Origin: a virus
Lineage: Duplodnaviria; Heunggongvirae; Uroviricota; Caudoviricetes
DNA length: 16,160 bases
IMG/VR virus record: IMGVR_UViG_2512047041_000002
Location: 1-16,160 of that record
Strand: one strand, 5' to 3'
This document shows positions 1-16,160 of the stretch, piece after piece (position 1 is the stretch's first letter; every line of letters starts with the position of its first letter). Below the pieces are notes generated by a model, which did no database searches, was not told the origin of the DNA, and saw only the letters and a list, made by a program, of their open reading frames with translations. Both the position numbers and the translations under genes were made by a program.

Positions 1-1284
1 TTACTTCTTCGCCTCTGCAACCACTTTGCTACCCACGCCGCGGTTATTGTATTCCCACATGCGGTTGTAGTTAGTGTCATTCAGATTGCGCTGTACTTCG
101 TCGTTATCATCAACGTTGCCAGTATTACCCGCAAACGGACGATTGGAAATCACCGCATCGGCCCACGGTTTCGCCGTGTTAAAACCTTCGTTGATGGCGC
201 TATCACGGATCACTACCTGACCGTTGGTATTGGCATCAACATCCAGCGAGCGGCCCAGTTGCGCCACGCCATCACCGGAAGCATTGAAACGGCTGTTTAC
301 GGCGAGGAAACCGTAATAGATGTTAGACAGCGTAGCCGGTGCAAACACATACGCTTCTTGCTGAGTACGTGAGTTCACCACGCGGAATTCGGTATTATCG
401 AACACCACTGCGCCGCGACCAGAAACGATATCCACATCCCCTTCAATATAGCTGTTGGTCACCAGCGTACGCGGCTGACGGTTGGTTTCCAGACGGTTCT
501 GCACACCACTGTTGGTGACAAAGAAGGTATTCTGACGACCGAGAATGTTGACGTTATTGATCTGCACTTTGTCGCCATCAGTACGCAGTGCCACCGCCGG
601 ATGGTTACCCGCATCTACGCTATCACCCAGCGTGTTTTCGATGGTCAGGTTTTGCAGTTGCAGGCCATTGTTTTGTGACCAGAAGACCGCAGAGCAGAGA
701 ACACCGATACTGTCGCTGCGTTTACTCTGGCAGCTATCGTACATATACCACGCCGGTTTACCTGGCATATATTTGCCGCGCGGGTTGACGTCGTGACGCC
801 AGTCGGCAGGGCTCATGCCACCATCAAGGGAAAGCCCAATCTTCACATCAATCGGTTTTTCACCTGTACCGTACAGAGTAATTCCACCCGGAGCGGCAGG
901 GACATACACCGTTCCCTGATACTCACCAGGCATCACGGCAATATACTGGCGCTTGTTGGTACGCTTGATAATTGCCGCATCTACCGCCGCCTGAATCGTG
1001 GTATGCGTTACACCTTGAGTACCCGCCGGGCCGACAACAAAGTCAGGTTGCGCAGGCAAGGTAATTGGGGAAGGATTCCACGCTGCAGCACCTGGCGTCA
1101 GGGACGCAAAATAGTGTTGAGCATCGAAATTCTGCGCTTCTTTTGCCGACAGAATCGGGCGAGAAGAGGTACCAGGCGCGGTTTGATCAGAAGGACGTTG
1201 ATCGGGCGGTGTTGAGCTACAGGCGGTCAGCGTCACGCCAAAAGCCAATGCCAGCGCCAGACGGGAAACTGAAAATGTGTTCAC
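1..1284 (-). CDS. ybhC: YbhC lipoprotein (pectinesterase-like / acyl-CoA thioesterase family), host gene on the gal side of attλ
   Basis: 427-aa ORF with N-terminal lipoprotein signal (LALALAFGVTLTAC|SS lipobox); I recognise the sequence as E. coli YbhC; it lies directly beside the lambda att core, as in K-12. Confidence 0.88.
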   Translation of the reverse strand: MNTFSVSRLALALAFGVTLTACSSTPPDQRPSDQTAPGTSSRPILSAKEAQNFDAQHYFASLTPGAAAWNPSPITLPAQPDFVVGPAGTQGVTHTTIQAAVDAAIIKRTNKRQYIAVMPGEYQGTVYVPAAPGGITLYGTGEKPIDVKIGLSLDGGMSPADWRHDVNPRGKYMPGKPAWYMYDSCQSKRSDSIGVLCSAVFWSQNNGLQLQNLTIENTLGDSVDAGNHPAVALRTDGDKVQINNVNILGRQNTFFVTNSGVQNRLETNRQPRTLVTNSYIEGDVDIVSGRGAVVFDNTEFRVVNSRTQQEAYVFAPATLSNIYYGFLAVNSRFNASGDGVAQLGRSLDVDANTNGQVVIRDSAINEGFNTAKPWADAVISNRPFAGNTGNVDDNDEVQRNLNDTNYNRMWEYNNRGVGSKVVAEAKK

Positions 1285-1330
1285 AGGTTGCTCCGGGCTA
1301 TGAAATAGAAAAATGAATCCGTTGAAGCCT

Positions 1331-1345
1331 GCTTTTTTATACTAA
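1331..1345. other. attL core (lambda 15-bp common core O), junction of bacterial B arm and phage P' arm
   Basis: Exact GCTTTTTTATACTAA; upstream flank gaagcct matches the attB B arm, downstream gttggcattataaaaaagcattgcttatcaatttg matches the lambda attP P' arm. Confidence 0.85.
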
Positions 1346-1425
1346 GTTGGCATTATAAAAAAGCATTGCTTATCAATTTGTTGCAACGAACAGGTCACTA
1401 TCAGTCAAAATAAAATCATTATTTG
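1346..1425. promoter_or_regulatory. attL P' arm with IHF H' site and Int arm-type sites P'1-P'3
   Basis: IHF-like tATCAAtttgTTG at 1371..1383; tandem arm-type-like decamers caGGTCACTAT (1391..1401), CAGTCAAAAT (1402..1411), AAAATCATTA (1412..1421) close to consensus C/AAGTCACTAT. Confidence 0.7.
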
Positions 1426-2489
1426 ATTTCAATTTTGTCCCACTCCCTGCCTCTGTCATCACGATACTGTGATGCCATGGTGTCCGACTTATGCCCGAGA
1501 AGATGTTGAGCAAACTTATCGCTTATCTGCTTCTCATAGAGTCTTGCAGACAAACTGCGCAACTCGTGAAAGGTAGGCGGATCCCCTTCGAAGGAAAGAC
1601 CTGATGCTTTTCGTGCGCGCATAAAATACCTTGATACTGTGCCGGATGAAAGCGGTTCACGACGAGTAGATGCAATTATGGTTTCTCCGCCAAGAATCTC
1701 TTTGCATTTATCAAGTGTTTCCTTCATTGATATCCCGAGAGCATCAACATGCAATGCTGTTGGGATGGCAATTTTTACGCCTGTTTTGCTTTGCTCGACA
1801 TAAAGATATCCATCTACGATATCAGACCACTTCATTTCGCATAAATCACCAACTCGCTGCCCGGTAACAACAGCCAGTTCCATTGCAAGTCTAAGCCAAC
1901 ATGGTGATGATTCTGCTGCTTGATAAATTTTCAGGTATTCGTCAGCCGTAAGTCTTGATCTCCTTACCTCTGATTTTGCTGCGCGAGTGGCAGCGACCGG
2001 GTTTGTTGTTATATGGCCTTCAGCTATTGCCTCTCGGAATGCATCGCTCAGTGTTGATCTGATTAACTTGGCTGACGCCGCCTTGCCCTCGTCTATGTAT
2101 CCATTGAGCATTGCTGCAATTTCTTTTGTGGTGATGTCTTCAAGTGGAGCATCAGTCAGACCCCTCCTTATTGCTTTAATTTTGCTCATGTAATTTATGA
2201 GTGTCTTCTGCTTGATTCCTCTGTTGGCGAGAATTTTTTCGTAGCGATCAAGCCATGAATGTAACGTAACAGAATTATCACTGTTGATTCTCGCTGTCAG
2301 AGGCTTGTGTTTGTGTCCTGAAAATAACTCAATGTTGGCCTGTATAGCCTCAGTGATTGCTATCCTCCTGTCTCGGCCTAATCCAAACTCTTTACCCGTC
2401 CTTGGGTCCCTGTAGCAGTAATATCCATTGTTTCTTATATAAAGATTAGGGGGTAAATCCCGGCGCTCATGACTTCGCCTTCTTCCCAT
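1419..2489 (-). CDS. int: Tyrosine integrase, lambda Int (356 aa)
   Basis: Translation MGRRRSHERRDLPPNLYIRNNGYYCYRDPRTGKEF... ends ...QYRDDRGREWDKIEIK, which I recognise as lambda Int with only a few substitutions; located next to attL and overlapping xis as in lambda. Confidence 0.95.
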   Translation of the reverse strand: MGRRRSHERRDLPPNLYIRNNGYYCYRDPRTGKEFGLGRDRRIAITEAIQANIELFSGHKHKPLTARINSDNSVTLHSWLDRYEKILANRGIKQKTLINYMSKIKAIRRGLTDAPLEDITTKEIAAMLNGYIDEGKAASAKLIRSTLSDAFREAIAEGHITTNPVAATRAAKSEVRRSRLTADEYLKIYQAAESSPCWLRLAMELAVVTGQRVGDLCEMKWSDIVDGYLYVEQSKTGVKIAIPTALHVDALGISMKETLDKCKEILGGETIIASTRREPLSSGTVSRYFMRARKASGLSFEGDPPTFHELRSLSARLYEKQISDKFAQHLLGHKSDTMASQYRDDRGREWDKIEIK

Positions 2490-7776: not shown

Positions 7777-7909
7777 TTTTGGGAACTCCTGGCTGATTAA
7801 GTATGTCGATAAGGCGTTTCCATCCATCACGTAATTTACGTGTGATTCGTTCAAGTAAAGATTCGGAAGGGCAGCCAGCAACAGGCCACCCTGCAATGGC
7901 ATATTGCAT
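7769..7909 (-). CDS. cIII: CIII (46 aa; shorter than the 54-aa lambda protein)
   Basis: ATG at 7907..7909 with AGGAG Shine-Dalgarno; MQYAIAGWPVAGCPSESLLERITRKLRDGWKRLIDILNQPGVPKNG* matches lambda CIII as I recall it up to PKNG, then stops. Confidence 0.85.
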   Translation of the reverse strand: MQYAIAGWPVAGCPSESLLERITRKLRDGWKRLIDILNQPGVPKNG

Positions 7910-7970
7910 GGTGTGCTCCTTATTTATACATAACGAAAAACGCCTCGAGTGAAGCGTTATTGGTATGCAT

Positions 7971-8261: not shown

Positions 8262-9152
8262 TCAGGCTGCCAGATCATCGTTTCCGATGGAAGCATAATA
8301 AGCTTTTTCTGCTTCTGCCGGAGGAGTATGGCCCAGCCTTTCCAGCAATCGTCGATTGTTATACCAGTCCACCCACGTGAGTGTGGCCAGTTCCACTTCT
8401 GCACGGTTTTTCCAGCTCTTACGGTGTATTACCTCCGCTTTGTAAAGACCATTGATGCTCTCCGCCATCGCGTTGTCATACGAGTCGCCTGTACTTCCTG
8501 TTGATGCCAGTAATCCGGCTTCCTTAAGCCGCTGTGTGTAGGCCAGCGATACATACTGAGAACCTTTATCACTGTGATGGACCGTGCCGGACGGTCGACG
8601 GGCCCATAACGCCTGCTCCAGTGCATCCAGCACGAATGTCGTTTCCATGGACGATGAGACCCGCCACCCCACGATGTATCCGGCAAACACATCAATGATG
8701 AACGCCACATAGACGAAGCCCCGCCATGTGCTGACGTAAGTAAAATCAGCCACCCACAGCTGGTCAGGTCGTTCTGCCACGAACTGACGGTTTACGCGGT
8801 CGCCTGCGGCAACGGCTTTCCGGCTGATGGTCGTACGGACCTTTTTACCCCGGAGAACACCGGCAAGTCCCATAACCGCCATGAGACGTGCCACAGTGCA
8901 TCTGGCCACTCTGATACCTTCCCGTAACAACTGACGCCAGACTTTACGCACACCGTATACCTTGTGATTTTCATCGTATACGCGCTGTATCTCTTTCTTC
9001 AGCCAGTCATCGCGCTGCGCACGGGCACTGCGTTTATCCGGATGATGTCGCTGTTGCTGACAGTGGTAATACGTTGACGGGGCAATATGCAGTTCGCTGC
9101 ATAGCGGTCCGACCCCGTACTGCTCACGCAGCTTATCCAGCAGTGGCATCAT
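8262..9152 (-). CDS. IS629-like transposase OrfB (296 aa, DDE catalytic domain)
   Basis: IS3-family OrfB-like sequence (…[31 protein letters not shown]…[11 protein letters not shown]…) in the -1 frame relative to orfA. Confidence 0.85.
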
Positions 9153-9475
9153 TTTTTCCAGAGGCGGTCGAACTCCGCCTTCGCAAAATAAGCGGAAGCC
9201 TGGCGAAGGATATCGTTACTGCGGCGCAGTTCACGATTTTCACGTTCCAGCTCTTTCAGACGCTGACGTTCAGCGGTGGTGAGCCCTCCATCACCGCCCC
9301 CGGTATCCCGCTCATGCTGGCGAACCCAGACACGCAGAGTCTCCGGCGTACAGCCAATCTTTGGAGCAATGGAACAAATTGTCGCCCATTGTGAGTCATA
9401 TTCGCCCTGACTTTCCAGAACCATACGGACTGCCCGTTGACGGACTTCGGGGGAAAAACGAGTATTTTTAGTCAT
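9149..9475 (-). CDS. IS629-like transposase OrfA (108 aa, HTH)
   Basis: [30 protein letters not shown]... with C-terminal leucine-zipper-like region; ends in an A6 run (GGAAAAAATGA) at the orfA/orfB overlap. Confidence 0.85.
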
Positions 9476-11087: not shown

Positions 11088-11624
11088 TCAAACAACCCAC
11101 CAGTTTGCCTGATTGGATGCCAGCCTTGCAGTTTTTATGGAATTAATTATGCCATGCTCAAGAGCCTTGTTAGCATCCAAAATGGTCGAGTCTGCTATCA
11201 GGGATGCCCACCTAATATGGGTTCCGATGTCGATATTGAACGTCTCAACGAAGCGATCAAGATCGTTATCGAGGCATTTCCCGTACTCTCTCAATCTGGC
11301 ATGGTCGGCGGCTGGGGAGGCAAAGCACCATAATAGAGGATGTAACAGGAATCTTGATAATGGGTTTGCGAAACGTTCTGAGCCAGCCAGGAAAACGATA
11401 TTAGCTATGGATTCAACATTGCTTATGTTGTGAGTTCTAACGGTAACAGGGAGTGACTTAAGAAAGTTATACGCAGTAAAGCCAGCGGCAGTTTCCCCTC
11501 CCTGACTTGATATATGGATATTTAATTCAGTTGCGCCTTGAGATAATGCGGTGAGACAGTGGTTCTGAAGTTGCCCAACAGTGGCAGTGTTAACGGGGCA
11601 TAAGAAATGAATTGTGTGCAGCAT
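11088..11624 (-). CDS. ClpP-fold (S14-family-like) serine peptidase homologue (178 aa), non-structural context
   Basis: By-eye alignment to E. coli ClpP blocks: ISSQGGETAAGFTAYNFL vs INSPGGVITAGMSIYDTM; ESIANIVFLAGSERFANPLSRFLLHP vs [29 protein letters not shown] (Ser and His aligned); C-terminal ALEHGIINSI vs AVEYGLVDSIL. Start ATG overlaps the Mnt-like stop (TAATG). Confidence 0.6.
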   Translation of the reverse strand: MLHTIHFLCPVNTATVGQLQNHCLTALSQGATELNIHISSQGGETAAGFTAYNFLKSLPVTVRTHNISNVESIANIVFLAGSERFANPLSRFLLHPLLWCFASPAADHARLREYGKCLDNDLDRFVETFNIDIGTHIRWASLIADSTILDANKALEHGIINSIKTARLASNQANWWVV

Positions 11625-11872
11625 TATTTTTCATCCTTAGCATACATGGTCTTTAGCGTCTCAAGTAGCGCCTCTTTGAATTTATCAGCTTCTTGGTTAG
11701 CGAATCCTTCAAGTGAGCGAGAGCCATCAAGATTATCAACATGTTTTTGAAGGATAAGCACGATCTCTGAGTTCATTGATCTGCCGTTTTTATCCGCTTC
11801 TTGCTGAATGCGTTTCTTTAAATAGTCTGGAATCCTAATCCCCAATGGACTGATATCTCTTGCACCTTTCAT
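11624..11872 (-). CDS. Mnt-like ribbon-helix-helix repressor (82 aa)
   Basis: ATG at 11870..11872 with GAGGAG Shine-Dalgarno; MKGARDISPLGIRIPDYLKKRIQQEADKNGRSMNSEIV... shows the RHH pattern of P22 Mnt (NGRSMNSE) plus a C-terminal extension; divergent from the Arc-like gene. Confidence 0.75.
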   Translation of the reverse strand: MKGARDISPLGIRIPDYLKKRIQQEADKNGRSMNSEIVLILQKHVDNLDGSRSLEGFANQEADKFKEALLETLKTMYAKDEK

Positions 11873-11894
11873 TTCTCCTCCTGCACGCTGTGCG

Positions 11895-11967
11895 TAGCTA
11901 CACAGTGTAGGCAAAAAATTTTTGACTTTAAATAAACACGGTGTAGTATTTAGTTATCACGGTGTAG
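11895..11967. promoter_or_regulatory. immI divergent promoter/operator region
   Basis: Perfect palindrome CTACAC-A-GTGTAG (11898..11910); two direct copies of CACGGTGTAG (11937..11946, 11958..11967) 21 bp apart; TTGACT (11922..11927) with TAGTAT 16 bp downstream as a candidate rightward promoter overlapping the repeats. Confidence 0.55.
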
Positions 11968-11981
11968 CAAGTGAGGTGGAA

Positions 11982-12122
11982 ATGAAAGTTAGAGACATCG
12001 CTCCATTAGGGATTCGTATCCCGCCAGAGATTAAAGAAAAATTGAAGGAAAAGGCTAAGGAGGAGGGCAGGTCTTTAAATTCAGAAATAGTGAAGCGTCT
12101 TATTCGCAGCCTAAAAAGTTGA
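11982..12122 (+). CDS. Arc-like ribbon-helix-helix repressor (46 aa)
   Basis: ATG at 11982 with GAGGTGG Shine-Dalgarno; [46 protein letters not shown]; the RHH strand [11 protein letters not shown] is nearly identical to the Mnt-like protein; the 66-aa track ORF is an upstream extension. Confidence 0.7.
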
Positions 12123-12170
12123 AGCCCCAACTGCTGGAACAGTCGGGGCTTCGGTATCAACAAATCAGAT
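12113..12170 (-). ncRNA. Candidate sar-like antisense RNA opposing the antirepressor RBS (hypothetical)
   Basis: Minus-strand TTGACT (reverse complement of 12200..12205) and AATAAT (12175..12180) with a 19-bp spacer; downstream a 12-bp imperfect hairpin (12121..12152) followed on the minus strand by AACTTTTTAG. Confidence 0.25.
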
Positions 12171-12183
12171 AGGAATTATTGAT

Positions 12184-13113
12184 ATGACAAGTTTAGCAAA
12201 GTCAACATTAAATTGCACTAACAGCATCACCATTTCAGACGTCAAGATTCATATGGATTCAGAGGGGCGTTACTCGCTTAATGACCTGCACAAGGCATCA
12301 GGTAAAGAGCGTCGTCATGAGCCTGCGGCGTGGCTGCGACTCGAACAAACCAATGAGTTAGTTCAAGAAATTCTAAATACACAGATGTGTGTATTTAAAA
12401 ATGGCGATAACTTTAATTCTTCAGAATCGCAGATTAAGAAGCCAATGGACTCTAAGAAGGGTCGCTACGGAGGCACCTACGTGTGCAAGGAGCTTGTTTA
12501 CTCCTACGCCATGTGGATTAGCGCAGCCTTTGCGCTGAAGGTTATCCGTGCATATGACGCAATGGTTACTGCCACACAAGAGAGGAAAGCTATTGGCGGT
12601 AAAACTTCAGTAGCTGAACGCACACCGCTACGAGATGCAGTAAACATGCTGGTAGGAAAGAAAGGACTTCGCTATGACGATGCATACAATATGGTTCATC
12701 AGCGTTTTGGTATTGACAGCATTGATGAACTTTCAATTGAACAAATCCCGCTGGCCGTAGAGTACATCCACAGGGTAGTGCTTGAAGGTGAGTTCATCGG
12801 CAAACAAGAGAAGAAAACCAACGAGCTTTCTGCAAAAGAAGCAAACAGCCTTGTATGGTTATGGGATTATGCCAACCGCTCACAGGCATTATTCCGCGAA
12901 CTGTATCCGGCATTAAAACAAATTCAATCGAACTATTCCGGCAGATGTCATGACTGCGGTTATGAGTTCTCCCGTATTATCGATATGGCGAGAGATGTTT
13001 TAATCAACCATACACGAGATGTTGATATTAATGAGCCAGACGGACCAACGAATCTTTCCGCATGGATGAGACTTAAGAATAAAGAATTACCTCCTTCAGT
13101 ACATAACTACTGA
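12184..13113 (+). CDS. Antirepressor with N-terminal KilA-N domain (309 aa), Ant-like
   Basis: Position directly after the Arc-like gene as in P22 immI; N-terminal region ([25 protein letters not shown]...[23 protein letters not shown]) resembles KilA-N; AGGA RBS. Confidence 0.65.
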
Positions 13114-13131
13114 CAGATAACCAACGCAACG

Positions 13132-13156
13132 ACCCAGCTTCGGCTGGGTTTTTTTA
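13132..13156 (+). terminator. Rho-independent terminator after the antirepressor gene
   Basis: ACCCAGC-ttcg-GCTGGGT followed by TTTTTTTAT, 19 nt after the stop codon. Confidence 0.7.
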
Positions 13157-13213
13157 TGCCCAAAATTCACCGTAGCCATGCTGCGGCGATTCCTTGTGTC
13201 TGGAGCAAATTAA

Positions 13214-15130
13214 ATGAGAGACATTACAGCCAATGTGATCGTATCGATGCCTTCGCAACTCTTCACTATGGCGCGTTCTTTTAAAGCCGTAGCTAATGGC
13301 AAAATTTATATCGGTAAAATTGACACTGATCCTGTAAATCCAGAAAACCAGATTCAGGTCTATGTGGAGAATGAAGACGGTTCTCACGTTCCTGTTTCGC
13401 AACCAATAATCATTAACGCTGCTGGATATCCTGTATATAACGGACAGATTGCCAAATTCGTTACCGTGCAAGGCCATTCTATGGCTGTTTATGATGCGTA
13501 TGGTGCGCAGCAGTTCTATTTTCCTAATGTGCTGAAGTATGACCCTGATCAACTACGGCAGCAATTAGAAGACCCAGATGGAGCGAATAAATACCCAAAA
13601 CTTCAGATAGCAAGATGGAGAGACAGTTATGATGTAAGAGGTTGGGGGGCTATTGGTGATGGTGTTCATGATGATACATCAGCTCTATCAGAATTACTTT
13701 CTGTTGCAACAGGTGGTGAAAAGATAGATGGGCGAGGGCTTACTTTTAAAGTATCAACTCTTCCAGATGTCAGTCGATTTAAAAATGCTCGTTTTTTATT
13801 TGAGAGAATACCGGGTCAGCCTCTTTTTTATGCTTCTGAAGATTTTATCCAGGGAGAGTTATTTAAAATTACAGATACACCGTGGTACAACGCCTGGACG
13901 CAGGATAAAATGTTTGTATATGACAATGTCATCTATGCGCCTTTTATGGCTGGAGACCGCCATGGTGTAAATAACCTCCATGTTGCATGGGTTCGCTCAG
14001 GAGATGACGGGAAGACCTGGACAACGCCGGAATGGCTTACAGATTTACATGAAAACTATCCCACAGTTAACTATCACTGCATGAGTATGGGGGTTGTCAG
14101 AAATCGCCTTTTTGCTGTAATTGAGACGCGGACCGTGAGAGGAAATAAACTGCAGGTTGCAGAGTTGTGGGATCGCCCAATGAGTCGCAGCCTTCGCGTT
14201 TATGGTGGTATAACGAAAGCAGCAAATCAGCAAGTCGCTTATATTCGCATTACTGATCACGGATTATTTGCTGGTGATTTTGTCAACTTCTCAAACTCTG
14301 GTGTTACAGATGTTACCGGGAATATGACGGTGACTACTGTTATTGATAAAAATACCTTTACAGTTACGACGCAAAATACCCAGGATGTGGATCAGAATAA
14401 CGAGGGTAGATACTGGAGTTTTGGCACATCATTTCACTCGTCACCATGGAGAAAAACCAGTCTTGGAACTATTCCTTCTTTTGTTGACGGAAGCACTCCT
14501 GTTACTGAGATTCACAGTTTTGCGACGATTAGCGATAACAGTTTTGCTGTTGGCTACCATAATGGTGATATTGGTCCACGCGAGCTTGGGATACTCTATT
14601 TCTCTGATGCTTTCGGTTCTCCTGGTAGCTTTGTTCGCAGACGCATACCTGCAGAATATGAGGCGAATGCATCTGAGCCATGTGTAAAATATTATGATGG
14701 CATTCTGTATCTGACGACCAGGGGGACATTAAGTACTCAACCCGGTAGTTCATTGCACAGAAGCTCTGATTTAGGTACATCATGGAATTCTCTTCGCTTC
14801 CCAAATAATGTTCATCACTCAAACCTTCCTTTTGCCAAAGTTGGCGATGAGCTGGTTATTTTTGGCAGTGAGCGCGCATTTGGTGAGTGGGAAGGAGGAG
14901 AACCTGATAACCGTTATGCAGGAAATTATCCAAGAACATTTATGACCAGAGTTAACGTCAATGAGTGGAGTCTGGATAATGTAGAGTGGGTTAATGTTAC
15001 TGATCAGATTTATCAGGGCGGAATAGTTAACTCTGCGGTTGGTGTTGGTTCAGTTTGTATCAAAGACAACTGGCTGTACTACATTTTCGGTGGGGAAGAC
15101 TTTTCTAAACCCATGGAGCATAGGGGATAA
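13214..15130 (+). CDS. Tailspike: P22-like head-binding N-terminal domain plus glycosidase-type receptor-binding domain with Asp-box (BNR) motifs; likely the 5' part of a frameshifted longer gene
   Basis: First ~115 aa ([11 protein letters not shown]...[38 protein letters not shown]...[15 protein letters not shown]...NVLKYDPDQ) closely resemble the P22 gp9 N-terminus as I recall it; [14 protein letters not shown] motif; two Asp-boxes SGDDGKTW and SSDLGTSW. Confidence 0.8.
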
Positions 15131-16160
15131 CAACAGAAAATATCCTTATGTTCACGATGGTCACCCGGCTGATTTGTATTGTTTCAGGGTGAAAATTAAA
15201 CAGGAAGAATTTGTTTCAAGGGATTTTGTCTACGGAGCCACTCCTAACAGAACGCTTCCTACTTTTATGTCGACGTCAGGCGTGAGGACGGTTCCTGTAC
15301 CCGTTGATTTCACAGATGATGTTGCCGTCCAGTCACTGACTGTCCATGCAGGTACATCAGGACAAGTTCGCGCGGAAGTCAAACTTGAGGGTAATTACGC
15401 CATTATTGCGAAGAAAGTACCGTCTGATGATGTTACCGCTCAGAGATTAATCGTTAGCGGCGGTGAAACAACGTCTTCAGCAGATGGTGCAATGATAACG
15501 TTGCATGGTTCCAGAAGCAGTACTCCACGTCGCGCGGTATATAACGCACTCGAACATCTTTTTGAGAACGGAGATGTTAAACCTTATCTTGATAATGTAA
15601 ATGCTCTTGGTGGTCCGGGAAACAGGTTCTCGATAGTTTATCTTGGCTCCAATCCTGTGGTTACCAGTGACGGAACATTAAAGACAGAGCCGGTCTCTCC
15701 TGACGAAGCATTGCTGGATGCCTGGGGTGACGTCAGGTATATCGCTTATAAATGGCTGAACGCTGTCGCTATAAAGGGGGAAGAAGGGGCGAGGATACAT
15801 CATGGTGTAATCGCGCAGCAACTTCGTGATGTTCTTATTTCTCACGGACTCATGGAAGAAGAAAGCACAACATGCCGCTATGCCTTTCTTTGCTATGACG
15901 ATTATCCCGCAGTATATGATGACGTCATTACTGGCCAAAGGGAAATGCCGCTGACTGATAATGACGGGAGCATCATTGTTGATGAGGATGATAATCCAGT
16001 GATGGTAATAGAAGACATCATTGAGCGCGTTGAAATAACGCCAGCAGGATCTAGATGGGGGGTCAGACCTGATCTCTTATTCTATATCGAGGCAGCATGG
16101 CAGCGCAGAGAAATGGATAAGATAAAAGCTAGGTTAGACTTAATAGAAGGGAAGCACTAA
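15039..16160 (+). CDS. Tailspike C-terminal region with S74-type intramolecular chaperone domain signature; probably continues 13214..15130 in another frame
   Basis: Frame open from 15027, overlapping the end of the upstream ORF; contains TSDGTLK (Ser-x4-Lys spacing as I recall for the autocleavage site of such domains) and [11 protein letters not shown] motif; track start is a TTG with no RBS, so an independent start is doubtful. Confidence 0.55.

Follow-up and report, generated by a model that had tools for sequence, protein, structure and literature searches.

We report that the arc-ant junction of an Escherichia coli prophage remnant carries, on the minus strand at positions 12113..12183, a probable homologue of the sar RNA of phage P22, and we put the probability of this reading, including the synthesis of the RNA and its repression of ant, at about 0.88, judging from the sequence and from analogy with P22. 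The element lies in a stretch of 16,160 nucleotides of viral DNA (hereafter the window), for which the original prediction had proposed a sar-like antisense RNA directed against the antirepressor translation start and had likened it to P22 sar. Both proposals were right. In a covariance-model scan of the window the Rfam sar family (RF00262) matches the minus strand from 12182 to 12117 end to end (model positions 1-68 of 68) with 67.6 bits, well above the gathering score of 43 (E = 1.9e-12), and the genes around the match are laid out as in the immI region of the annotated P22 record BK000583. From this match, the aligned P22 sar coordinates and the fold, the predicted RNA would be ~70 nt long (69-71), with its 5' end at about A12183, by alignment to the annotated start of P22 sar, and its 3' end within a U-run at 12117..12113. 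Membership of the sar family in sequence and structure, the gene context, a structure conserved with covariation, a strand bias and the conservation of a promoter are directly supported by the analyses that follow. The element is an ordinary one, a copy of a textbook antisense regulator of an already known family in a broken-down E. coli prophage.

The genes of the region follow the P22 immI order of a divergent Mnt-like repressor, Arc, sar, Ant and tailspike. The mnt-like gene (11624..11872, minus strand) encodes 82 amino acids with a Pfam Arc match at 6.1e-08 and is named 'Arc family DNA-binding protein' by RefSeq at the corresponding locus of E. coli strain N32. The arc-like repressor gene (11982..12122, plus strand; 46 amino acids, Pfam Arc 4.3e-12) has a stop codon that overlaps the base of the sar terminator stem, and the antirepressor gene ant (12184..13113, plus strand; 309 amino acids) combines an N-terminal KilA-N domain (1.1e-22) with a C-terminal P22_AR_C domain (3.2e-29), its near-identical counterpart in N32 being called 'phage antirepressor Ant' by RefSeq. 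A terminator scan places an intrinsic terminator after ant at 13131..13150 on the plus strand. A Pant-like promoter for the arc-ant mRNA, TTGACT-16-TAGTAT, was called by the promoter scan at 11922..11949 on the plus strand, at the same position as the P22 Pant/operator annotation; it is convergent with the promoter predicted for sar and is flanked by two inverted repeats, I2 and I4, which are candidate operators. Around it, at 11891..11946, lie the inverted repeats CTACACAGTGT/ACACGGTGTAG and a palindrome (11891..11904), candidate binding sites for the Arc-like and Mnt-like repressors whose sequence is unlike that of the P22 operators. Directly downstream of the mnt-like gene, and sharing base 11624 with it, is a gene for a ClpP-like protease (11088..11624, minus strand; Pfam CLP_protease, 2.2e-11). 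In P22 it is orf59a that follows mnt, and no such gene is present there.

The sar element thus occupies the antisense position between arc and ant of an immI-type module (mnt, arc, ant), and it is complementary to the ribosome-binding site of ant. The predicted target (12171..12186, plus strand) consists of the Shine-Dalgarno sequence AGGA at 12171..12174 and the start codon at 12184..12186; sar, at 12113..12183, covers AGGA and the whole spacer as far as base -1 relative to the ATG.

Read as RNA, the 71 nt of the minus strand from 12183 to 12113 fold into two stem-loops with a minimum free energy of -33 kcal/mol, as against -11.4 +/- 2.75 kcal/mol for shuffled sequences (z = -7.85), none of the 200 shuffles folding as well. 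Stem-loop I (12156..12183, minus strand) has 8 bp plus 2 bp in the minimum-free-energy fold, coincides with inverted repeat I3, and carries UUCCU (12175..12171), the complement of the ant ribosome-binding site, across its upper stem and loop. Stem-loop II (12121..12152, minus strand) is the hairpin from which the original prediction had set out, described there as 12 bp at the arc-ant junction and followed by a U-run on the minus strand, and both features were confirmed: the arms (12121-12133 and 12140-12152) are 13 nt each with 12 Watson-Crick pairs and one further position, A·C on the plus but G·U on the minus strand, and the plus strand reads AAAAA at 12113..12117. The hairpin begins within the arc stop codon (TGA, 12120..12122). 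Together with the tail AACUUUUU (12120..12113) it forms the predicted intrinsic, Rho-independent terminator of the antisense transcript, which the terminator scan called on the minus strand only, with 14 pairs, 8 of them G-C, a loop of 4 and the tail AACTTTTTAG. Inspection of the plus strand found no T-run after the hairpin, and a bidirectional terminator was rejected for that reason. A second RNA family, ctRNA_pGA1, also touches this hairpin, at a sub-threshold 22-28 bits (cut-off 45) that reflects the generic terminator stem only. The plus-strand RNA folds into two hairpins as well (-26.5 kcal/mol, z = -3.93), the second of which takes in the Shine-Dalgarno sequence together with the first base of the AUG and may add to the control of ant.

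Comparison among relatives indicates on which strand the structure has been kept. A BLAST search with the 141-nt junction gave 12 phage loci, all of which match RF00262 at the equivalent junction just upstream of ant with 30-98 bits, 9 of them above the cut-off, and these were aligned with the window by MAFFT (13 sequences). In this alignment 93.7% of the cells of the two-helix structure are paired, compared with 30-53% when the partners are slid against each other, and 11 cells show double changes where shuffles give 2.4. Nine further loci from Enterobacterales (Pectobacterium, Citrobacter, Serratia, Tatumella, Xenorhabdus, Mangrovibacter and Entomohabitans) brought the set to 22 sequences, of which 91.5% of cells pair and 27 are double-change cells; the pattern used to choose the nine prescribes the -10 and some of stem II, so these loci are independent only at the positions that the pattern left free. 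Helix 1 keeps its pairing by way of double changes (83.7% of cells among the 13 sequences and 79.0% among the 22), and helix 2 is 98.7-99.5% paired in the two alignments, with compensatory changes and with G·U pairs that strengthen it on the minus strand. All 22 base pairs are intact in the window's own copy, the most of any sequence compared. When the 13 sequences are read as minus-strand RNA, 268 of 286 cells hold standard pairs, and when they are read as plus-strand RNA, 206 of 286 do, because 63 cells are G·U pairs that become A·C mismatches on the plus strand. The conserved structure belongs to the minus strand, and the mRNA hairpin on the plus strand does not account for this bias.

The scan of genome contigs with the promoter-plus-stem pattern returned 10 loci, four of which pass the Rfam gathering score; another five look homologous by eye, fall below that score and were used for pair counts only. 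One locus (L022), in a Chloroflexales genome assembled from a metagenome, was a chance match with a stop inside the reading frame of its 'ant'. A scan of viral contigs with a degenerate stem II pattern gave five loci, all of them unrelated GC-rich terminators outside any ant context, and these were dropped.

The promoter of the antisense RNA is placed more safely by comparison than by consensus matching, since the best-looking hexamers are not the conserved ones. We predict that the window's Psar is GTGCAA-17-TGC-TAAACT (12218..12190, minus strand), a candidate identified by its alignment to P22 and by its conservation. It would thus lie inside the first ant codons, convergent with Pant, as expected of a sar element. 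Its extended -10 (12190..12198, minus strand) consists of TG at 12198..12197, a C, and TAAACT at 12195..12190, written in ant codons 3-5 (AGT TTA GCA), and each of its bases has a counterpart in the -10 end of the Psar annotated in P22 (TGC-TATACT), although TAAACT is one step farther from the consensus than TATACT. The -35 (12213..12218, minus strand), 17 bp away, is weak: GTGCAA matches the consensus at only 3 of 6 positions and stands at the site of GTGTTA in P22, but its second and third positions (T and G) are almost invariant in the 13-sequence alignment. The motif TTG[C/T]TAnnnT-N3-CAT is invariant in 13 of 13 of these BLAST-found sequences, and the extended -10 (TGn-TAnnnT) ends six bases short of the site that corresponds to the start of P22 sar. 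As TGnTAnnnT-N3-CAT by itself is expected 0.73 times by chance in one window, and is thus not rare, the weight of the motif comes solely from its conservation across genomes.

That conservation is informative in view of the proteins involved. The Ant proteins of the 13 sequences have three kinds of unrelated N-terminal domain (P22_AR_N, Bro-N and KilA-N), yet ant codon 4 is always of the rare NTA type and codon 5 always NCA, and the invariance of motif and codons across such different domains points to the DNA motif, and not the protein, as the object of selection. The activity of Psar probably depends on transcription from Pant, a point on which our reasoning does not rest; we found nothing usable in the literature on the interplay of the two promoters.

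A different promoter had been proposed originally, namely a TTGACT/AATAAT pair with a 19-bp spacer, pointing leftward and lying inside the first codons of ant. The letters, the spacer and the direction are all present (12175..12205, minus strand; TTGACT at 12205..12200 and AATAAT at 12180..12175), and TTGACT does lie within the ant codons, where it encodes Lys-Ser-Thr, but AATAAT is upstream of the ATG at 12184, between the Shine-Dalgarno sequence and the start, and we judge the pair not to be the promoter. The conserved promoter extends to 12218, 13 bases beyond the interval then proposed (12113-12205). Were transcription to begin from this pair, at ~12165-12170, the result would be a shorter RNA of ~50-55 nt. 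The pair does agree with the consensus in 10 of its 12 positions, and both hexamers are kept in all eight close relatives with a KilA-N-type ant; TTGACT is, however, absent from every relative with another ant leader. Its spacer is outside the usual 16-18 bp, and a standard promoter scan over that range does not list it. Its quality is at chance level, two matches as good to TTGACA-N19-TATAAT being observed in the window and 1.84 expected. Shorter spacings were also considered: by our own reading the hexamers at 15-18 bp from TTGACT (TATCAA, ATCAAT, TCAATA and CAATAA) match the -10 consensus at no more than 3 of 6 positions, and none has both A at position 2 and T at position 6. The structure speaks against the pair as well, for AATAAT is the 5' arm of stem-loop I, which pairs and covaries in relatives and hence is part of the RNA, and an RNA begun at ~12168 would miss the complement of the Shine-Dalgarno sequence (12171..12175). 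A start from this pair therefore seems very improbable to us.

We regard it as even less probable, indeed scarcely credible, that there is no antisense RNA at all and that the hairpins serve the plus-strand arc-ant mRNA alone, for example by sequestering the ribosome-binding site of ant or by stabilising the arc message. The plus-strand fold described above, with its second hairpin over the Shine-Dalgarno sequence, speaks for such a role, and a plus-strand and an antisense role are not mutually exclusive. The minus strand nevertheless pairs better (93.7% against 72%) and folds better (z of -7.85 against -3.93), the U-run follows the hairpin on the minus strand only, the promoter-like extended -10 just upstream is conserved at synonymous codon positions, and the P22 homologue is an experimentally described RNA. 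A third alternative concerns the usefulness of the element at present rather than its identity: the sar cassette might be intact in sequence and idle, a relic that regulates nothing of consequence in a decayed prophage. For this speak an IS3-family element (8262..9475) between the early-left genes of the cIII region and a truncated DNA-transfer (gene 16-like) fragment, the interruption of the same tailspike gene by IS1 in strain N32, and the lack of an immC repressor gene in the window. Against it, the mnt-like gene, arc and ant each keep a full-length open reading frame whose domains are intact, and none of the sar base pairs has been lost. We consider the idle state unlikely, if well short of implausible, and it is compatible with the element being a sar homologue; in this host the cassette may have no remaining role.

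The decay itself is plain from the rest of the window, which is a prophage remnant essentially identical to one in E. coli N32, a cerebrospinal-fluid isolate. The insertion element, whose IS3 frameshift pseudoknot (ALIL) was detected by Rfam at 9078..9194 on the minus strand with 120 bits, joins the cIII region to the truncated DNA-transfer gene, so that immC and the late genes are missing from the window. Other parts remain recognisable. A full-length lambda cIII thermoregulator RNA element (Rfam RF01804, 88.5 bits) lies at 7864..7922 on the minus strand. The host gene ybhC and a tyrosine integrase fill the left end (1..2489), which indicates a remnant integrated next to ybhC, in the neighbourhood of the lambda attB site. 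The tailspike (13214..15130) is an endosialidase of the K1-capsule type, with Head_binding, End_N_terminal, End_beta_barrel and End_beta_propel domains; its reading frame stops at 15130 and another frame is open from 15039 to 16160, the end of the window, which suggests a frameshift or a pseudogene.

Taking the element to be a sar homologue, we can outline how it would act. The production of the RNA, its start and end, and the repression of ant translation are carried over from P22, where an antisense sar that blocks ribosome binding on ant is the described mechanism (PMC12197685; PMC7968456), where sar is described as acting during infection and the establishment of lysogeny (PMC12197685), and where the sar locus is covered by minus-strand small-RNA reads during infection (PMC13397905). 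A weak promoter of the extended -10 type, buried in the first ant codons, would fire leftward, with transcription beginning at about A12183, the base that precedes the ant ATG. The ~70-nt transcript would fold into the two stem-loops, of which stem-loop II (12152..12121) with its tail would terminate transcription just inside the arc stop codon. Being copied from the opposite strand, such an RNA has perfect complementarity to the stretch of the Pant mRNA between arc and ant, and by pairing with it, the ant Shine-Dalgarno sequence included, it would occlude the ribosome-binding site and lower the synthesis of Ant. This would add a post-transcriptional layer on top of the repression of Pant by Mnt and Arc.

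Two observations bear on how the element may have travelled among phages. The first ~12 codons of ant (12184..12222 in the window, and the ant starts of L001-L012 and L019-L028) encode a conserved leader, M-x-[S/I/T]-[I/L/V]-[A/T], and this same leader precedes all three N-terminal domains. It appears to be kept because it carries Psar, an extended -10 written in codons 3-5 forcing just such a leader with a rare NTA codon 4. At the other end, when 11600..13200 is the query, many of the matches in E. coli start at positions 513-516, exactly at the sar terminator (12112..12115 of the window, the 3' end of sar and the arc stop). Upstream of this break the genes differ (other Arc variants, a LexA-family gene, an extra open reading frame), and the CUS-3 record labels the break 'bsq2; boundary sequence'. 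A joint of mosaic recombination seems to lie at the sar terminator. We suggest tentatively, and at slightly less than even odds, that ant leader codons 1-12 with Psar, sar and its terminator form a portable regulatory cassette, in which an RNA gene doubles as a recombination joint. If this is true, phages could swap repressor and antirepressor modules while the antisense control stays matched to its target. The occurrence of the Psar-sar cassette before three kinds of Ant N-terminal domain hints at modular exchange at the joint, and is a mildly new observation.

Sar-like sequences are present in 830 of 5426 complete E. coli genomes (about 15%), O157:H7 strains included, and the RefSeq annotation of the near-identical N32 locus has no sar or other RNA feature. 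Taken together, the two suggest that the antirepressor genes of E. coli prophages may commonly be under unannotated antisense control. Beyond annotation this matters little, and a standard Rfam scan detects the element. Gene calls at the junction are affected as well. In Kapi1 (L005), SPN3UB (L008) and GF-2 (L010) the deposited ant coding sequence starts 60-80 bases upstream, so that it overlaps arc and extends across sar, and the conserved ATG is the one that adjoins the sar 5' end, while in Klebsiella phage ST101-KPC2phi6.1 (L009) the sar-like element lies inside an annotated 1.6-kb coding sequence; these are likely to be errors of start codon or of gene call.

The nearest known system is P22 itself, whose sar RNA was the subject of studies (Liao et al. 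1987; Wu et al. 1987; Schaefer and McClure 1997) that are among those cited in PMC2629481. As annotated in BK000583, P22 sar extends from the stop codon of arc as far as the last base ahead of the ant ATG, with the 3' hairpin as its terminator and Psar in ant codons 3-12. The window's element shares with it the antisense position, the length of ~68-70 nt, the two stem-loops with II as terminator, a nearly identical stem II and ACCGAAGCCC linker, and a promoter whose position in the ant codons and whose extended -10 (TGC-TAnnCT) are both the same. The two differ in stem-loop I, which is AUCAAUAA/UUGUUGAU here and GUUGGU/ACUGAC in P22, a difference that tracks the other ant leader, the predicted stem being longer here; in one U·G pair of P22 stem II, which is C-G here; in the U-tail, of 5 U here and 3 in P22; in the -10, TAAACT as against TATACT; in the target Ant, with KilA-N here and P22_AR_N in P22; and in the carrier, which here is a defective prophage with E. 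coli as host.

Other phages widen the comparison. RF00262 matches epsilon34, CUS-3, Kapi1, Emek, PhiR12 and SPN3UB with 48-96 bits at the equivalent junction upstream of ant, and Emek and several E. coli prophages share with the window the KilA-N ant and the stem I variant. Emek and EC.P3 have an extra open reading frame between arc and sar, and among the P22-like phages compared sar is annotated only in epsilon34 and P22. Outside this group, the c4 RNA of P1 and P7 is alike in being a small RNA that pairs around the ribosome-binding site of ant and so blocks synthesis of the antirepressor, but it is listed as trans-acting, is ~77 nt long and belongs to unrelated phages (PMC12197685). No sequence relation between c4 and the window's sar was seen. 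The c4 RNA is cut from the transcript that also carries its target and is not made from the opposite strand. The OOP RNA of lambdoid phages resembles sar in being a short cis-antisense RNA with an intrinsic terminator that is convergent with the mRNA it controls (PMC12197685), but it targets the cII message rather than the ribosome-binding site of ant, and its family and locus are unrelated to those of sar.
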